This document shows, piece after piece, positions 25,336-55,852 of a stretch of 64,000 bases of DNA. The DNA comes from Massalongia carnosa (Eukaryota), in the NCBI GenBank assembly GCA_965645245.1, contig OZ287068.1:1984001-2048000 (forward strand). The letters run 5' to 3'. Position numbers and translations under genes: made by a program. Below the pieces are notes generated by a model. The model searched no databases. It saw nothing but the letters and a program-made list of their open reading frames with translations, and was not told where the DNA came from. Numbering within the stretch: position 1 is the stretch's first letter; each line of letters begins with the position of its first letter.

Positions 25336-25854
25336 TGTTGAACAAAAAATCAACCAGGCATACGGCAGCGGGATGCAGGAGAAGAGGGTCTAGGGCTATC
25401 AAGGATAGGCAAAGAGAAGTGCTTGGCAAACGTGATGCAGGTACTCCGTATTTCCAGTGAAGATACTCCAAATTTAGCTATCTGCTGAACTGAATTCTGA
25501 ACGACTGAATAGCTAAATTACATGAGGAATCATCGTCTCTTTATACTGCTTGAGGGCCTCCATCTCGGCCTATATCAAATGCATGAACCTGCTTCCTTTG
25601 AACCTTTTCAGCTGGGCAAAATATACCTTATTGCTGACCGGAGACACCGAGACACTCAGTGATCATGAACAGCTGAATTGCCTCCGAAATGTAGCATTAT
25701 TGCTGCATACCTTTGCCTCCTCGTAGTTGCCGAAGTCGTGCCGATATCTGAAACTTTTCGCATATAGCATATGATTGCCTAATCTGGAAATTAGTAAGCA
25801 GGAGGCAAAAGAACCTCGGTCGCAAATATTCAGGTATCTCGGCAAATTCCAATA
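25336..25854. mobile_element. Solo LTR, family A, copy 1 (519 bp)
   Basis: Begins TGTTG and ends CAATA. Flanked by direct repeat AAGCC (25331-25335, 25855-25859). Near-identical reverse complement at 30888-31406. Confidence 0.92.
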
Positions 25855-26033
25855 AAGCCATTACTAAAACTAGGCGAATGACGCACATGGAGAAATTCCT
25901 GCGATAAGAGTAACATCTTGTCAAATAAAAACCGAAACTAACGGCGCTGGCATGACTCAGACAGGCAAGGAGTCCATATAAGACCACAGATAGGATCTTG
26001 CAGTGTCAATAAGACATTATGCACATTGTACGT

Positions 26034-26105
26034 GAACGCGCTTGAACTCGACTGATATGAAATCGACGGGAACGCGCTTGAACTCGACTGATATGAAATC
26101 GACGG
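26034..26105. repeat. Perfect 36-bp tandem duplication
   Basis: gaacgcgcttgaactcgactgatatgaaatcgacgg x2. Confidence 0.95.
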
Positions 26106-26669
26106 TTCTACTTTGAACTACGATTATAGCTCCCCGGGCGTGACACATTGGCGATGATGGCGTATCTCGGCCGAAAGAACTTTAATTGATAACGAGACGT
26201 GCTGTGGCTCAACCTTCGCCTTTAACTATTAACCTTTTCCGATTAGCTCCGCGCTAACATATTTAGCCTACGAGTCTAACTTTTTATAGTTAGACTTTGC
26301 TTACTAAGTTTGCTGTGCCAGCACGTCTGAGGGCAAAACTCAATAATACAGGCAGGTTTGCCTTATAAATGAGAAAATGTTAAAATACAAAGCCGCCTTA
26401 CCCGATTAAGCGTAAAATATCAACTCGATTGTGTTATACCATACCATCGTTTTCTATGTGTATTATTTATGTGTTTTCCAACTACACGACACGCTGTAGA
26501 ACGCCATCAAGAAACAATGAGCGCGCTTTTTAACCTCGATGCAAGTTAGACAAAAGGCCCGGATCTCAGTCTACACTGGATATCTAGTTGAGTCACGAAA
26601 ATAGTAAGAGAATGACAGCTGCAAGCGGTCATTGATTCATAATTAACTTGTCATCTCTATAGCTAGACT

Positions 26670-28130
26670 ATGTACGGCAAAGCTAGGATCGAGCGGCAAT
26701 CATCCTTCATGAATAGGGTTGGACTTGGGTCGCGGAGGCCCTTCGAGCGGAGCTCAATGCACTGGTTGCAACGGCCGCATTTGGGGTTGTCCACCCACCG
26801 TCGGAGACTGACGAGCTGGGCACCTTAAATAGCTTCAAGGGTGCCGCATCGGTCATCATGAGTAAGGCGCCACGATGGCTAGATCCTATTCAGCGCGTCT
26901 GTTGTGATGCCACCGAGACGAGTCCACTCATCCTCAGCGCGCTATTCCGGTCGGGCGGCAGTTAACTATATTGTCCCTCTTTTGTCACATGTTGCGCCCG
27001 AATACGCCAACAAATTTTCAGAGCGTCATGGGCCTTTATATCTATCAGGGTGGCGCCAGGCGCAGAGTTCTGGATACTTTATGTCAACTTGGCTTGACAA
27101 TGTCGTATTCCACTCTTCAACGGCGCATGTCAAGCTTAAGTGACGAAGCGAGGCGAAAAATAAGGACGATAGGGCGGGCTTCAACTACTGTTGTAATCTA
27201 TGATAATTTTGTTTTTGTAGAAGGCCGAAGAGGCGAGAGAATCGGTGACGTAAGAGAGTTTCGATCAATTACGATCGCTTTGATATTTGAAGGACTGGGC
27301 CTTGGGGTAACGGTCTTGAGACAGAATATGTGGCAACCTGAGAATTATCCTTTGTTCGTCATAGGACTCGCACTAAGATTGAAACCAGATAACATAGACG
27401 CACAGGTAAGCATCAACTGTCACGGACAAGGTCCAGATAGGGAGATATACAAGAGTTACTATTTAGAAAGCTAGGTCTAGGGATAGTATACAAGACGTCC
27501 GACGAAGAGCTCCAAACACCTGAGAAACCACATAGGTTTTATAGCCATGGCTTCCAACTCCCCTATTCTTGACTTGCCCTCATCTCTGTTCCTGTTCTAA
27601 TTTCCTAACCATGATCGCTTTGACCTGTTCCGCCTTTCTCCATGCCGAAGCAATCTCTCTCTGCTGGGCAATCCCAGTCGTAGGCTTGGATAGTGGAGAC
27701 GTTGAGATTGGATTCGGGATATAGGAGTTTGGGAGTGCACTGAAGGCAGCGGAAGAACGTCTGAACACATGGGGCGAGGTTTCAGGATAGTTCGGAATAA
27801 CGGGTCACGGTTCTATTCAACATGCAGGGCAGGTTTCACGGCAAGAGAGCCTGTTAAATACTAACCCGATCAGGAAACGTGGGAGGGTGCGAGGTAATTC
27901 CATGACATCAACCACTTTTTCAAGCGGCTTACTTGAAACTGATGAAATGTGGACGAAGACTCAAATTCATCATGTCGAGTCGGCAATCCAAGCCCTTTAC
28001 AATGCTAAATTCAGCGACTTCAAGTTTCTTCGGGTTACATCTATGCCTGTGTTGAAAAGACTGAATCGCCTTCGAACGAAGTATCATCCGTTGAAGCCGG
28101 TTATGAAAGACGAAAGCACAACTGTTGAAG
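26670..28130 (+). pseudogene. DUF6589/Academ-type transposase remnant, truncated
   Basis: NFQSVMGLYIYQGGARRRVLDTLCQLGLTMSYSTL...VVIYDNF, later HPLKPVMKDEST. The 5' part has stops and frameshifts; the C-terminal part is lost. Confidence 0.7.
27418..27907. mobile_element. Solo LTR, family B (490 bp), inside the transposase intron
   Basis: TGTCACGG...CATGACA flanked by TCAAC direct repeats (27413-27417, 27908-27912). Removing it restores a short GTAAGC...CTGAT...AAG intron linking IDAQ to TQIHH. Confidence 0.88.
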
Positions 28131-28890
28131 ATCAAGCATTTCAGCTTGTGATTTCAACAAAGAACTGACTTGAATGTAAATCTCTGGTCGATCAAGAGGT
28201 GTTTTGATAGGTCGAGTTTCATCATGAAACCCACATTGACTTCTGACGCAGTTCAAGGTTTCTTCATTCAAAGTTGCAGAAACTCTCAAAAAGGGTATTC
28301 CATTTGACAATCGGGTTCGAAGCACCTCAAGATTGAAGTATTCAGGTCGAAAATCACGCCATTCCGATATCAGATGCAGCCCGTCGATAGCCAACAGACA
28401 AAGATTTGAGAAATAAGATGAATGACTGAGAACCATTTCGTTAAACAATTTCGACGTTGCTATTTCTGGACTCGTGAATACTGTAAGTAACAATTAGAAC
28501 GCTGACTTGTTTACAAACAGATTTATTCGACTTATCATGAGCGTAACGATTATGACGAATAGTAGTCAAGGTAGACGAGTTGTTATTGTCTCTGTTTAAC
28601 ACTATGGGTCGACAGTTGTCGATGAGAGTAAGTTTTTCACATTGCTCTTCTTTCAGTGCAATCAAAGGCATGATTATCAACACTGACTTGCAAGGCGAAA
28701 ACATCAAAGGAGCAGCTTGAAATAGTATGCTTTTCCGGAAGCCTGTTTTTGCTACCAAAATCAAATCCATCTTATCGCACAACAGATGATGAAGTGCATC
28801 CACCTGCGCCCTCTTTAGACGAAACCCGAAATAACGATCAACAACGCTCTCGATCTTCTCAAGAGTCAACGCCTGTATCGCGTCGTTCAT
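28130..28890 (-). pseudogene. RecQ-like superfamily II helicase remnant (first RecA domain only)
   Basis: Motif 0 FGFRLKRAQ, degenerate Walker A AKTGFRKS, motif Ia IIMPLIAL, FTSPE, degenerate DExH AIDGLH, aromatic loop EWRDFRPEY, motif III SATL, and LDRPEI. Confidence 0.85.
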
Positions 28891-30040
28891 ATTGATGTAA
28901 TAGCGCTACACTCGTGATCGAGTTTCGAACTGTCAAAAAGCACGCTAGCAAGGACGACGACGAGATTTTCGAGTTCGGAGCCCTGAAGGACTACAATAAC
29001 TTGATCCGTCAAGGCAATAAGATGGATATAAGCGCCGACCGTTGATTTGAAGAGCAAGACTCAGTTTGATATTGTCGTGCTGTTGTCGGGATTTGAGAAA
29101 CAATTTGAGTCGATGTTGCTCGACGAGGAAGATATTCGCGTAACGCATGTAGGGCGTTTAAATTTTAGGACATTCAATAAAGCATATCTGAAAGTAGCGG
29201 CGACAATGAAGTATTATATAACAATTATCATGTGTTGTCGTTGATCCTGTCCTGAACGTGAAAAACGATGATTTTTTATCTTAAGCACGAAATCTGCATG
29301 TGTTGTCACCAAAATAACGCGAACCTGTGCAGAGTTTGCCTCAGACGTGCCCGGCTAAGCCCCTTCGGGCTAGCCTTACAGAACGTTAAGCCCCTTCGGG
29401 TTATATCTCAGAGAGGGCACCCTTTGCTTGTTTCCTTTCTGTATTTTCGAGTGCATAGCTTCCCAGTAGATAGTCAATTCCACATCCCGGTTGAACCGTC
29501 ACAATTATAATTAAAAAAATTTAAGTGTGCAGTTCGAAAGCGCAACATTGTTGTAGCATAGGATTCTACTATTAAGAAAGATAGCATAAGATTTCGGAGA
29601 AGAAGAAGTCAGGCAGATGAACTAACTCTGTTTAAATGTACATATACGGGCTGTCTACAGAAAAACAGTACCCCCTTTCAGACTAACCAGATTAGGCTTA
29701 ATATTAGCAATAGAGTTGCTAACAATAGAGACCTGATACTATAAATAGAAGTTATCAAGCCTGATCTATTTAGTCTGGAAAGGGGGTGCCAATTGACTAT
29801 CGAGATGGATAAACTTTCCCAAAGTCATTCTTACATTTTTGCACTCGTCCCACTTGATACCATGCTCAAGGCAATACTGTACGAAGTAGTAAAAGCGACC
29901 TTGCTATCAATACCATTTATTAACTTTATTGATCGCTTAATCCCGCTTTGTCCTCTTTCTCATATCCTAGCTTCAAGCAGCTTTTTTGCTTGATCTTGCC
30001 TCTTAAGCTTCAGAATTTCATTATTACATGCCCAAGATAC

Positions 30041-30180
30041 TGTGCCAAACTTTGAACCCTGAAACTGCGCGGTAAAATAATAACAATAAGAAGCGAATGA
30101 ATTGGACCATATATCAAAATTTGGTGCAGTAGCTAATGGCCCTTCTCACCTTCATACCGCCTTTTGCAGTATGTAGGATA
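30041..30180. mobile_element. Orphan, diverged TIR related to the 52958-55557 element
   Basis: tgtgccaaactttgaaccctgaaactgcgcggtaaaa...aattggacca...tttggtgcagtagctaatggccc...ccttttgcagtatgtaggata aligns with 52976-53111. Confidence 0.85.
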
Positions 30181-30887
30181 CATACGGAGTACCACTGCCT
30201 GCAATCTTTCTGCACGCACTGTACTTTAGGTGTATCAACATTTGTGAGTGTTGTTATAGCATGCCTATTCAATACTGATAACATGACTCGATCGTCTACA
30301 AAATCTTCATCGTACTTACCATGGTAAGCACTGCGTGCTACAGCTTCCGCTTTTTCATCTTCTCTGCTGGCAGTGGGTAAGCTGGAGGCCGCGCCAGATT
30401 TTGTAAGCTTTACTGTGCTAATCAGCCTACTCGTCTACTATTTCAGGGTGAAAAAACCATGTATCATAATCGCCTGGTGGCTATTATTTAGCTCCGGTGT
30501 GCTCACCTTCAGCTTCTCTACCCGCTTCTCCCTCCATATAGCCTGTGCCCCATAGATAGTCCCTGCAACTGCAACACCAGATAGAACAGCTACTGCCGCA
30601 AGTTGTACTTGACGGGAGGAGGCTTGACGTTTGAACTAGGAGGCTATGGATTCAGCGTAGAGGGTTCGCTACCGAAGTGGATGTACTTCTGCTGCTTCTT
30701 AAGAGTTCTTTGCAGCTTCATACCGGAAGAAACGAAATATAACTAGGCGGTATTACTTCCAGTCTTGGGGGGAAACGGACAAAAATCTTCTCCCAGCTTA
30801 ACATAGGCCTCACCCCGAGCTGCCGCTTTTAGGATGAACGGGGTGATGCAGCAAAACTTCTGGTTGATAATGCTCCTCCACTCTCCT

Positions 30888-31406
30888 TATTGGAATTTGC
30901 CGAGATACCTGAATATTTGCGACCGAGGTTCTTTTGCCTCCTGCTTACTAATTTCCAGATTAGGCAATCATATGCTATATGCGAAAAGCTTCAGATATCG
31001 GCACGACTTCGGCAACTACGAGGAGGCAAAGGTATGCAGCAAGAATGCTACATTTCGGAGGCAATTCAGCTGTTCATGATCACTGAGTGTCTCGGTGTCT
31101 CCGGTCAGCAATAAGGTGTATTTTGCCCAGCTGAAAAGGTTCAAAGGAAGCAGGTTCATGCATTTGATATAGGCCGAGATGGAGGCCCTCAAGCAGTATA
31201 AAGAGACGATGATTCCTCATGTAATTTAGCTATTCAGTCGTTCAGAATTCAGTGCAGCAGATAGCTAAATTTGGAGTATCTTCACTGGAAATACGGAGTA
31301 CCTGCATCACGTTTGCCAAGCACTTCTCTTTGCCTATCCTTGATAGCCCTAGACCCTCTTCTCCTGCATCCCGCTGCCGTATGCCTGGTTGATTTTTTGT
31401 TCAACA
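30888..31406. mobile_element. Solo LTR, family A, copy 2 (519 bp, opposite orientation)
   Basis: TATTG...CAACA, reverse complement of 25336-25854 with about four substitutions seen by eye. Own TSD CTCCT (30883-30887, 31407-31411). Confidence 0.92.
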
Positions 31407-52104: not shown

Positions 52105-53174
52105 CATAGACGGGCGGGACCTACCTACTACTGTGGGGATGGAAATTCTTACTTAATATGACCTACGGAGAGATATGTAATCTATCCGTTTTGTTATCTT
52201 CTCATCAACTCTATGAGTATGGCATTGCCCATTGCCGTTAGTTATCGATGGAATTGACATAGCGACGGTACATACTCATTATCCAATAGTTCTTTAAAAC
52301 AATCATAGACGTTTTCCGGCGGATTTGAGAGCTATGACGGAGGAGAAGACTTTCATCAATGGCTTTGGGTAGAAGTAACATAGGTTGCTTCAAAGCTGAA
52401 GATGAATACGGAGAAGAGGGAGGCATAGCAACGTCGGAATACAGTAATAGCAAAATACTTGAGTGTTCGATCGCAATCAAGCTACCTATCCAGTTTTCGT
52501 GTAAACATGATTCTCTGAACCCTGTCCAATTTCTGCCTCATGGGAAAGACATAGGTATGAAGATATTACCTACCTAAAGTGCATTAGCTGCTAAAAACTA
52601 CACTCAAAAACACCCCCCCTTTCTAACTTATAGAGTACATCAATTCTTTTTCGGAAATAATTTGAAGTCTATCTGTCCACTAACACTTCCAAACTCCTTG
52701 ATTCTTCGAAAATCCTTCTCATAGCTTCTCAAGAGTAGGACTCGAACTTCTTTCATAAACATCCAAAACGGGGGAAACATTAAGATGGTTCTCGTAGAAA
52801 TAGGCTTCTAAAGAATCCCGTAAGTACATGTCACAGGACTATTGTGATAGTATAAAAAGCACCCTCGATAGCTTCAGGTTGAACGGCTTCAACAAAGCTG
52901 ATGACCAATCCCTCGCCCGCTTGAGGTGGGTTTAGGGTTTAGGGTTCAAAAGAAATGCACCCGTTTGCAAAATGGTGTGCCGAACTTTGAACCCCGAAAC
53001 TGCGCGGTAAAAAAAAATATTAAGCGACAGAATTGGACCACACAGCAGAATTTGGTGCAGTAGCTAATGGCCCTCCTCCCTTTCACACCACCTTTTGCAG
53101 TCTGTAGGATAAATGATATGTAGTGTTTTCATGTAGATCTTTATTCTTGCTACCTCGTAGTTTCAAAAGCAAAC

Positions 53175-54482
53175 ATGGGACGATCATTCAGCATCATCAA
53201 ACGCCAGGCTATAAAGTTCAGACTGGAATCGGATGAAGATGCTACTGGTGTCAGCATTAGACAACTACGTAAGATGAGACATAATTGGGAACATTTCAGT
53301 GAGGTTGCAAAACCTCAGCTTGCTAGTGGCCGGCGCAAGAAAATGAATCAACAACAAATCGAGCAACTACTCATGTATCTGGATCAGAGACCTACCTCTT
53401 ATTTGGACGAGATATGCTGGTTTTTGTATGATGAATTCGACGTCTTGGTGAGCGAGTCTACGGTTTCTCGAACTCTTAAGCAGATGGCCTGGAATCGAAA
53501 GATGGCTATTCGTATAGCATAACAACGCAACCAATCTTTGCGTGATGAGAAGATGATTAGACTGGGAGGATGGAGGGCTGATCAGTTGATTTTCTGGACG
53601 AAAGCGCTACATGCGAGCATACTGGTCAGTACTATTTGAAGAACTTCAGTTTCTTTGCTAATTGTTATTACTTTAGGTGATCGTCGATATGGATGGGCCG
53701 CACCAGGAATCAAACCGACCATGATTCAAGCGCTCAAACTTTCTAAGAGATGGATTATATTACTAGCGTTCACCATCGACGGTTTCATAGCTTGGGAGGT
53801 GCATCATGGCTCTATAATATCAGATATTCTGAATGAATTCGTCAGGCTCAAGGCTTTACCATATGTATTGCGCTGGAGGTAATGGTCCTCGTTCGGTTTT
53901 GATTATGGATAATGCCTCTATACATTGGAGTGAGGAATTGAGGATCATGTGTCAGGATGCATATGTTTTGCTGGTTCATTTGCCTCCGTAATCACCCGAT
54001 TTTAATCCAATAGAGACTTCATTCTCTATTCTTAAGGCCTGGATTAAACGTCACAGTAGTTTAATTGATTCATATATAGAGGAATCTGGTGGATTTGGGA
54101 GATTTTTAGAAGATGCACTTGTTAGATGGTAAGGACTAACATCTAACATCCATCTAGTTATTAGATGGTAAGAACTGTTAGACTACCATCATGGGCATCC
54201 GTCTAGTGCCTATCTTTGGTGACCCTACCACGGGGGCCGAAGTGACCTCTGGGGACCGAGAATCAGTGGACCAGCTGACTCCCTATGAAAGAGGGTCGCC
54301 GGAAAGTCTTCAATGTGACTGCTATATAATGAGTAGATAGCTCACATATAATCCACACCTTCAATGACAATCATGCTATTATACCTACAAAGTGAAGCTA
54401 TATTTTCATAGCACTACAGGCTATAAGTGAAGATGTTTCACATGATGCAGGTGCATTGTTTCGACAGTCTAGTATTGAATAA
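53175..54482 (+). pseudogene. IS630/Tc1-like DDE transposase, disrupted
   Basis: HTH YLDEICWFLYDEFDVLVSESTVSRTLK, then LDES, RRYGWA, IMDNASIH, LPP*SPDFNPIETSFSILKAWIKR. Has stops, frameshifts and an LTR insertion. Confidence 0.9.
54120..54410. mobile_element. Solo LTR, family C (291 bp), nested in the transposase 3' end
   Basis: TGTTAG...TTCATA flanked by GCACT repeats (54115-54119, 54411-54415). Removing it restores FLEDALQAISEDVSHDAGALFRQSSIE*. Confidence 0.85.
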
Positions 54483-54506
54483 AACTCATAAAAATCAATT
54501 TCCTCA

Positions 54507-55332
54507 TCAGCTACTGTCTTCCGTATCATCCTCCTCGTCCTCCTCATCCTCCTCATCCTCCTCGTCCTCCTCGTCCTCCTCGTCCTCCTCGTCCTCCTGA
54601 TTGTCCTCCTCCTCTTCCTCCTCCTCGTCCTCGTCAAGGTCCTCCTCCTTCTCCTCTCCCTCCTCCTCGTCATTCAAAGCCTTTTGTGTAGTCCTAGTAG
54701 TTAGCGGACGTACATTGAAGCTTGGCCGGAAATTCTTTGGCAAAGATTGACTGGAGGAACGTGATTCTGATGGAGGAGGAGGAACAATTATAGGTTCAGA
54801 ATCGTGCTCGGATGATTGCTGCTTCAATTGTCTAGCAAATTTGCTGACATCGCGAGCCAAACGTATGCCGATGCCAGGTTCGATTCCCATTTTCTCCCAT
54901 TTTTCCTCATAAACAGTACCTTTCCACTGCTGAATGGTTTGGTTTGTAAATCAGAGTAAACAAATCAGGCTCGGGCTCAGGCTCAGGCTCAGGTTCAGGA
55001 GCACTAGATAGCTCGGAAAGACAAGGAGAAGGCGTACTACTGCGAGTCGGACGAACATTCCTTGGCTCGGGGAGGAGGAGACGATGAGGAGGTAAAGGCG
55101 AAGCCGAAGGAGAAGCTGGAGGAGATGGTAAAGGTGGACGTGATGGAAGATCAGGAATACGGGCATTTAAAACTGGTGATGATGATCTAGGAGGATTGAT
55201 TCTAAGCCTTTGTTTAAATGAAGGTGCTGAGTTCCTAGGTAATTCAGTAGTAGATGCTCGTTTTCATGATTGTTTGGAGGGCTGTTTGGGGGGCTGTTTT
55301 GAAGGCTGTTTAGGAGGCTGTTTTCGAGGCAT
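54507..55332 (-). pseudogene. Second (accessory) ORF of the TIR element, disrupted
   Basis: MPRKQPPKQPSKQPPKQPSKQS*, Pro/Ser-rich, PEPEPEPEPE, a frame break near 54945, then QWKGTVYEEKWEKMGIEPGIGIRLARDVSKF and a long (EDE)n tail. Confidence 0.7.
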
Positions 55333-55852
55333 GATGACTGGAATAACTACGTTGAAAGTTCATACAAACGACAATCAAAAGGATATCATTAACCATATTA
55401 TCCTATAGACTGCAAAGGGCAGTGTGAAGGGGAGGAGGGCTATTAGCTATGTACTGCACCAAATTCTGGTGTGTGGTCCAATTCTGTCGCTTATTTTTTT
55501 TTTTTTACCGCGCAGTTTCGGGGTTCAAAGTTCGGCACACCATTTTGCAAACGGGTGTAGCACATAGAAATCCGATCAGATGATTGGATAGTAAACATGG
55601 CTGAAGCCATTGCCAAGACTAGATACACGACCACCCATCAATCTTCACATTGGATGAAGACGGTTGCTCCTGTTTTCTAAAAGCTTCCAAGTCTTAGCTA
55701 TGCAACACATCTGAACATGTTATCATCGGCGCGCCTATAAGGTGCTTCCTGGCTCCCGATACCACTGCCAGTTGGACGATCTAATATACGGGGCTCTGTA
55801 ATCGAGACTCAGGTCGTCCGGCTTGAAAGTTGGCTCCAGGTAATCTTATCTC

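Follow-up and report, generated by a model that had tools for sequence, protein, structure and literature searches.

A 64,000-nucleotide stretch of the Massalongia carnosa genome (assembly GCA_965645245.1, contig OZ287068.1, positions 1,984,001 to 2,048,000; G000:C2:1984001-2048000 in our numbering), hereafter the window, carries two convergent gene fragments at 26685-28890, a transposase on the plus strand and a RecQ-like helicase on the minus strand. An earlier note, made from these letters alone, had described them as the cut and fused remains of a dead, internally deleted DNA transposon with a DUF6589-type transposase and a RecQ-like helicase. This description is supported, as is the placement of the break: translation of the two sides of a blunt fusion at 28122|28123 ends in ...KDEST for the transposase and in ...MLDLQQ, after the first RecA domain, for the helicase. 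A search of the genome of the host, probably a filamentous ascomycete (52 Mb, 25 contigs), reveals that the window copy is ordinary debris, a damaged member of an amplified non-autonomous family that we call B1, and no one-off dead copy. The copy itself is unremarkable. The result worth pursuing is a target rule followed by its relatives, whose insertions are strongly biased to a one-sided word of the Yap/AP-1 type that begins 26-27 nucleotides from the element end.

The window copy and its relatives

The features of the window copy were delimited by comparison with other B1 copies, with longer relatives (B2 and B3), with a sister family (A) and with miniature inverted-repeat transposable elements (MITEs) of the same group.

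26195-26683, plus strand: left end of B1; BLAST homology with other B1 copies begins at 26195, and the outermost 15 nucleotides of the terminal inverted repeat (TIR) are absent.
26301-26307, plus strand: Yap/AP-1-type word TTACTAA, within the end and 24 nucleotides ahead of the inner-site core.
26321-26341, plus strand: inner inverted subterminal site, the left 'TIR' of the earlier note; A, B1, B2 and a MITE have it as well, 100-155 nucleotides in from the end.
26683-26685, no strand: first deletion junction, at which the transposase lacks some 135 N-terminal codons together with the DNA upstream.
26685-27405, plus strand: remnant of transposase exon 1, from its translation and a tblastn match to the family A transposase.
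27406-27958, plus strand: putative transposase intron (GT...AG), at the same position as a 63-nucleotide GT...TAG stretch of family A; it houses a solo long terminal repeat (LTR).
27418-27907, plus strand: this solo LTR, TG...CA, 490 bp, with target site duplication (TSD) TCAAC, from an unrelated LTR retrotransposon.
27959-28122, plus strand: remnant of transposase exon 2, truncated ahead of D475, H511 and E732 (family A numbering).
28122-28123, no strand: second deletion junction, blunt, with about 2.8 kb lost by family A coordinates.
28123-28480, minus strand: remnant of helicase exon 2 (remainder of the first RecA domain), in which Walker B reads DGLH, not DELH.
28481-28535, minus strand: putative helicase intron, from comparison with B2; the donor GT is AT in the window copy.
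28536-28890, minus strand: helicase exon 1, with GFRKS as its Walker A motif in the window copy only and GFGKS in others.
28891-29327, no strand: right non-coding region of B1; 12 related loci go on into the family right end, whose last ~180 nucleotides are absent here.
29336-29403, plus strand: damaged terminus of a 682-bp MITE from this group, taken as the right 'TIR' in the earlier note; the MITE body would extend rightward.

The boundaries first assigned to the element, 26321 and 29350, are wrong. The 12-bp inverted pair on which they were based (26321-26332 and 29339-29350) does exist, but its arms lie in the inner site and in the MITE end and are not TIRs. Genome-wide there are 258 occurrences of the 12-mer, compared with one of a control, so the refutation that a single-copy repeat would have brought does not apply. 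At most fetched loci it points outward within ...GCACGTCTGAGGTACTGAGGCAA, followed by TACTGAGGCAA and then by unrelated flank. The true terminus, read inward, is TTGCCTCAGTACCTCAGAC, common to the 6-kb A elements, B1, B2, B3 and the MITEs, and every end is bipartite, with an inverted copy of the core 100-155 nucleotides inside the outer terminus. In the window copy the inner site lies ~140 nucleotides inside the true left end, and other B1 copies carry TTGCCTCAGTACCTC ahead of the position matching 26195. On the right, 65 nucleotides of a MITE end (98% identity over this length to other MITE ends, with 8 nucleotides of the terminus deleted) stand in place of the ~180 nucleotides of B1's own right end. 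A normal targeted MITE insertion was rejected on inspection as the origin of this junction, the spacing to the internal word being a misfit. No TSD survives around the window copy.

B1 is ~2.9 kb long, and 13 other loci match the window copy at 92-97%. Its first junction is common to all nine other B1 copies printed, whereas both of its sides map to longer relatives (L081, L084). The blunt junction is present in 10 of the 11 other copies printed and is spanned by the BLAST alignment of the eleventh; both of its sides run on normally in L084 and L081. Because both junctions recur in other B1 copies, the deleted form must have been amplified after it arose. Further decay is evident in the exon 1 remnant, which keeps the first catalytic Asp (YDN) and whose frame is stopped near 26714 and shifted near 26960, and the Pfam matches of the fragments are weak (DUF6589, E 0.028; DEAD, 2e-5 and 8e-4). 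In Walker B, DGLH is the reading at all 11 of the other B1 loci that were scanned, compared with DELH in the two B2 copies and DEMH in family A; the motif is predicted from these residues to be dead throughout the B1 loci covered by the scan. Only the window copy has the altered Walker A and has lost the splice donor. The 490-bp solo LTR is missing from 11 other B1 copies, and the joint without it appears in three of four public runs; matches of 99-100% elsewhere lie in direct pairs ~6.2 kb apart. Repeat-induced point mutation was rejected as the cause of decay, the contexts of C>T changes (CA 16, CG 15, CC 12, CT 11) showing no signature of it.

Full-length copies, which the earlier note had suggested seeking, are provided by family A, a sister of B at ~65% protein identity. 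It is 6027 bp long with two-part ends of ~140-170 bp, and both genes lie between such ends, contrary to the possibility that they never occur together. At least 30 near-complete transposase matches are found at 97-100%; among 13 copies set side by side, identity is 99.6-99.9%, and 5 of these keep both genes as full-length frames. In two A copies (L038, L178), which lack the TAG that ends the putative transposase intron, an 898-codon frame results, and the helicase has a common frameshift. One A copy (L040, 530-7076) has flanks that are inverted copies of each other and no TSD, and is a rearranged insertion.

The longer B relatives keep either the helicase (B2) or the transposase (B3) together with a PhyH-like gene. 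They form complementary deletion subfamilies, in that L081 and L082 retain the helicase with most of the transposase gone and L083, L084 and L172 show the reverse. PhyH-like and other frames lie between the left end and the transposase in L081-L084 and L172, and may be cargo or a nested element; the PhyH-like dioxygenase frame of L081 (2290-4700; G000:C1:3080799-3083199) has a Pfam E value of 4e-5, above the cut-off. MITEs of ~215 and 682 bp carry the same ends. Because the ends are shared, it is very probable that B1 and the MITEs owed their movement in trans to an intact relative, for example family A or a lost B parent. The flanks of a 6-kb element (L031) and of a 682-bp MITE (L045) on another contig are identical but oppositely oriented; judged from these flanks, either one site in a repeated target was hit twice or one locus is derived from the other.

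A target word beside the insertions

Among 67 end pairs, an exact TSD of 8 bp is present in 47, one of 9 bp in a single pair and none in 19, many of which are non-cognate pairings of nested ends. The TSD of related copies is therefore 8 bp, not the 9-10 bp that had been expected. Recovery of a 9-10 bp TSD by a one-base shift of the ends was rejected, as A precedes in 7/29 cases, T follows in 9/29 and both occur in 2/29. The 9-bp TSD of L223, a metagenome relative whose terminus is similar, suggests that TSD length varies within the lineage; no match to the helicase region of its own relative L212 was found at that locus.

In the flanks of these insertions, the word T[TG]A[CG]T[AC]A recurs at one distance from the element. 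It begins 26-27 nucleotides from the end in 28 of 108 flanks of the first set and, in a hold-out of 60 newly fetched regions, in 14 of 81 unseen flanks compared with 0.08 expected. The background expectation was computed from the same flanks plus the window. After 21 of 189 flanks that overlap element DNA were dropped and repeated targets were collapsed, 27 of 145 independent flanks still have the word at 26/27, where 0.10 would be expected; counting only the cleaned hold-out gives 10 of 60, compared with 0.04. Five more flanks have an 8-bp form of the TTACGTAA type at this position, and 11 of the 118 remaining flanks differ from the word by one mismatch, compared with 1.7 expected.

The distance is sharply defined. 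The peak is 2 nucleotides wide, with 31 occurrences at position 26, 11 at position 27 and at most 3 elsewhere, and independent insertions into the same repeated target differ by 1 bp, as does the 26/27 spread. Among paired insertions, the word is on one side only in 22/47 and on both sides in 0/47. Three forms, TTAGTCA, TTACTAA and TGACTAA, account for 32 of the 42 exact hits. The same word stands 24-25 nucleotides before the inner-site core in 8/8 ends (A, B1, B2 and MITE), an arrangement with the same geometry as a preferred target, and MITEs are seen inserted in inner sites (L171, L273).

The target word is also contained in two solo LTRs on either side of the locus (25336-25855 and 30887-31406), which belong to one young retrotransposon family, are inverted and 99% identical, and have 40 scored genome matches. 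Copies of this LTR have been hit repeatedly by families A and B (L140, L142, L171). The two LTRs form a 520-bp inverted pair that was considered as the TIRs of the element and rejected, both being solo LTRs. In a distant metagenome family (L201, L202; ~30% identity) a Yap-type word lies at 24 nucleotides in 2/8 ends.

Overall, B1 is derived from a two-gene transposon that makes an 8-bp TSD, and insertions of this group are strongly biased beside a Yap/AP-1-type word. We consider probable the fuller reading, in which B1 was moved in trans and a word-bound protein, most likely one of the host, positions the insertions. Several observations weigh against it. The word was first spotted by eye in the flanks, and part of the data had gone into the definition of the motif. 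Among 500 permuted-motif controls (mean 1.75), one reached 17, to be set against the 27 observed. The exact 7-mer is absent at 26/27 in 25/47 paired insertions, and targeting is thus partial. Its frequency is uneven, at 23/61 in flanks of family A, 17/105 for MITEs and others and 2/23 for the B families. Among 38 ends of metagenome relatives the word is at 26/27 in none and at 24 in two, both from the same family. No complete B parent was found, and the window copy lacks both termini, so its own target site is unreadable.

The element's proteins and a probable reader of the word

Profile searches with a full-length relative gave the matches that the earlier note had anticipated. The family A transposase matches DUF6589 at 3e-62 and no other Pfam domain, and its named relatives are from lichen fungi. 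In its structural model (predicted local distance difference test, 82.8) a helical insertion interrupts an RNase H core; D298 and D475 are on or after strands and E732 is on a helix, and H511 is also in the candidate site. The best structural matches are the P-element transposase (Z 9.8, root-mean-square deviation 6.4, 357 residues aligned) and Hermes (Z 8.5, 6.5, 295 aligned); other DDE enzymes come next, and these Z values are middling. Foldseek returned nothing at E <=0.001, its top row being an unrelated helical transporter. The model thus indicates that the DUF6589 protein is an RNase H-fold DDE transposase of a cut-and-paste element, and the fold together with the TSD points to an 8-bp staggered attack.

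The helicase of the element, a RecQ-related enzyme of superfamily II, has DEAD and Helicase_C domains, and its nearest solved structures are RecQ, WRN, RECQ5 and RECQ1. No RQC or RecQ_Zn_bind domain was found in it by Pfam, whereas the host Sgs1 has both. In a quick tree of 38 rows, run with no bootstrap, with long branches flagged and with P0015 (identical to family A) omitted, the window fragment pairs with the B2 helicase (SH-like approximate likelihood ratio test 99) inside a 31-row clade of element helicases (92), and host Sgs1 and a second host RecQ lie in a separate group (96). One RecQ-like helicase frame (L168, 2503-3366, on G000:C20) has a long branch and is next to a retroelement-like frame, and may belong to some other mobile element. 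Of 80 metagenome transposase loci, many of which derive from a small number of samples, 38 have a helicase as neighbour, downstream and convergent in 37 of these 38; a related terminus is present in 28/80.

These results bear on what the locus is. If the helicase had grouped with the host Sgs1/RecQ proteins, a broken host RecQ gene would have been indicated, and this grouping was not obtained. That gene, or a lone dead AcademH copy with the 12-bp repeats at 26321 and 29350 as its limits, would explain the inverted pair and the two gene fragments. Both versions are nevertheless hardly credible, as evident by the identity of the 12-mers as inner site and MITE end, by junctions common to other copies and by the distance of the helicase from the host RecQs. 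Moreover, none of the fetched loci is bounded by the 12-mers with a TSD.

The remaining alternatives concern what reads the word. A distance rule only 2 nucleotides wide makes it highly likely that a word-bound protein positions the transpososome ~25 bp away, centre to centre. Indirect causes, such as open chromatin around bound factors, survival of insertions in repeats or host repeats copied with their insert, would suit the 11 clusters of repeated targets among the clean flanks and the flanks that overlap element DNA, but are improbable given that the narrow peak persists after repeated targets are collapsed and in the hold-out. The word matches known sites of a host regulator. TTAGTCA, TTACTAA and TGACTAA are listed as Yap1 response elements in PMC6545440, and the flank words conform to the Yap response element set TTACTAA, TTAGTCA, TGACTAA and TTACGTAA. 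A Yap1 orthologue is encoded in the host genome. Chances are about even that the reader is a host Yap1-like basic leucine zipper (bZIP) dimer that serves as a putative tether. A complex prediction for the transposase with the host Yap1 bZIP scored 0.00 and is informative neither way. The same element and bias could instead result from a word read by a protein of the element, be it the helicase or the transposase as a dimer, and no host factor would then be involved. Conservation of the word at a fixed inner-site distance in every one of the eight ends is what a transposase site would show, and the bias is unlike between families A and B, whose transposases differ. We regard this as rather unlikely, however, because the word is dyadic and its 7- and 8-bp forms fit the known Yap element set, and because Pfam places only DUF6589 on the transposase, only helicase domains on the helicase and a bZIP on neither.

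With the host tether as the reader, the Yap1-like bZIP would also bind the same word in the element's own ends. Accessory ATPases select targets for some bacterial transposons, and by analogy the helicase might act as an adaptor or, equally speculatively, as a remodeller of the strand-transfer product. The complete scheme, in which host Yap1 sets insertion ~25 bp off, the end words aid assembly of the complex and the helicase is an adaptor for target selection, is possible, though we put it forward tentatively.

If this scheme were true, a eukaryotic cut-and-paste element would be aimed by an oxidative-stress regulator at base-pair precision. A host tether would mean that insertions favour stress-regulated sites, and would offer a natural model for site-directed integration. 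The young intact copies of family A make the role of the helicase testable, with the 26/27-nucleotide bias as a read-out for a need for the helicase, for host Yap1 or for neither. The findings also link Pfam DUF6589 to the DDE fold and to a lineage with 8-bp TSDs.

Other features of the window include a tandem duplication of 36 bp immediately to the left of the element (26030-26101) and another element at 52958-55557 with inverted ends of >100 nucleotides (two arms, 100% and 94%), to which a diverged end at 30033-30183 is related. A low-complexity repeat with a 9-nucleotide period lies at 54499-54680.

Comparison with AcademH and other systems

The AcademH label given by the earlier note fits the gene content and fails on the TSD. 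AcademH elements are fungal and carry a DDE transposase and a RecQ-like helicase (PMC10045372, PMC10799480), and they have TIRs, as here with TTGCCTCAGTACCTCAGAC at both ends of A, B and the MITEs. An autonomous Academ element of Marasmius is 6026 bp long with 167-bp TIRs (PMC8290104), close to the 6027 bp and ~140-170 bp ends of family A. An Academ profile block, W-x-x-P-x-x-G-x-x-H-x5-L-x-x-I (positions 214-232, PMC5751038), fits the transposase in register, in a comparison of 3 of ~19 profile parts made by eye. AcademH is described, however, as having a TSD of 9 or 10 bp (PMC10045372), unlike the 8 bp here, and as 'low-copy', unlike the high copy number here. The six Marasmius families have a 9-bp TSD (queried for one) and termini that start with TAG (PMC8290104), whereas TTG/TTA is found here. 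Because the TSD differs, we do not file the family as an AcademH member; it works like AcademH, with which it was compared by description, and its membership is unproven. The literature searched, from which most subscription journals and the defining paper of AcademH were absent, yielded no target preference for Academ and no report of DUF6589 as a transposase. New here is the Yap/AP-1-type word at 26/27 nucleotides as a target rule for an Academ-like element.

KolobokH is likewise fungal with a RecQ helicase, and the end units of KolobokP contain inverted repeats of their own (PMC9587614), resembling the two-part ends described above. Kolobok elements have a TTAA TSD and RR..YY termini (PMC9587614), and KolobokH was excluded on the variable 8-bp TSDs, TT..AA termini and DUF6589 found here. 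The P element and hAT (Hermes) are alike in their RNase H fold with a helical insertion, being the best structural matches, and the hAT TSD is usually 8 bp. They differ in that identity is 10-12% and in that a separate helicase gene is present here. The hAT / P / MuDR / Kolobok / Dada group is marked by C/DxxH after the second Asp (PMC9587614); in its place alignments A1 and A2 have G-L-W/F-H, with G-L-W-H in the comparison with P and hAT. The 8-bp TSD length also fits KDZ (Zisupton, Dileera); the Pfam search reported only DUF6589 on the transposase. Sly1 of Neurospora was dismissed as a relative, being a CMC element. General background is given in PMC12210899, PMC4592977, PMC12730594 and PMC4455052.

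As a targeting system, the family resembles elements whose insertion position is set by a nearby protein-binding word. TnGBS/p-MULT insert 15-17 bp upstream of sigmaA promoters (PMC3942029), and Tf1 (with Atf1 and Sap1), Ty3 and Ty5 are likewise directed to a set distance from host factors (PMC5371812). Unlike these bacterial elements and LTR retrotransposons, the family described here is a eukaryotic cut-and-paste element, and its word is of the Yap/AP-1 type.

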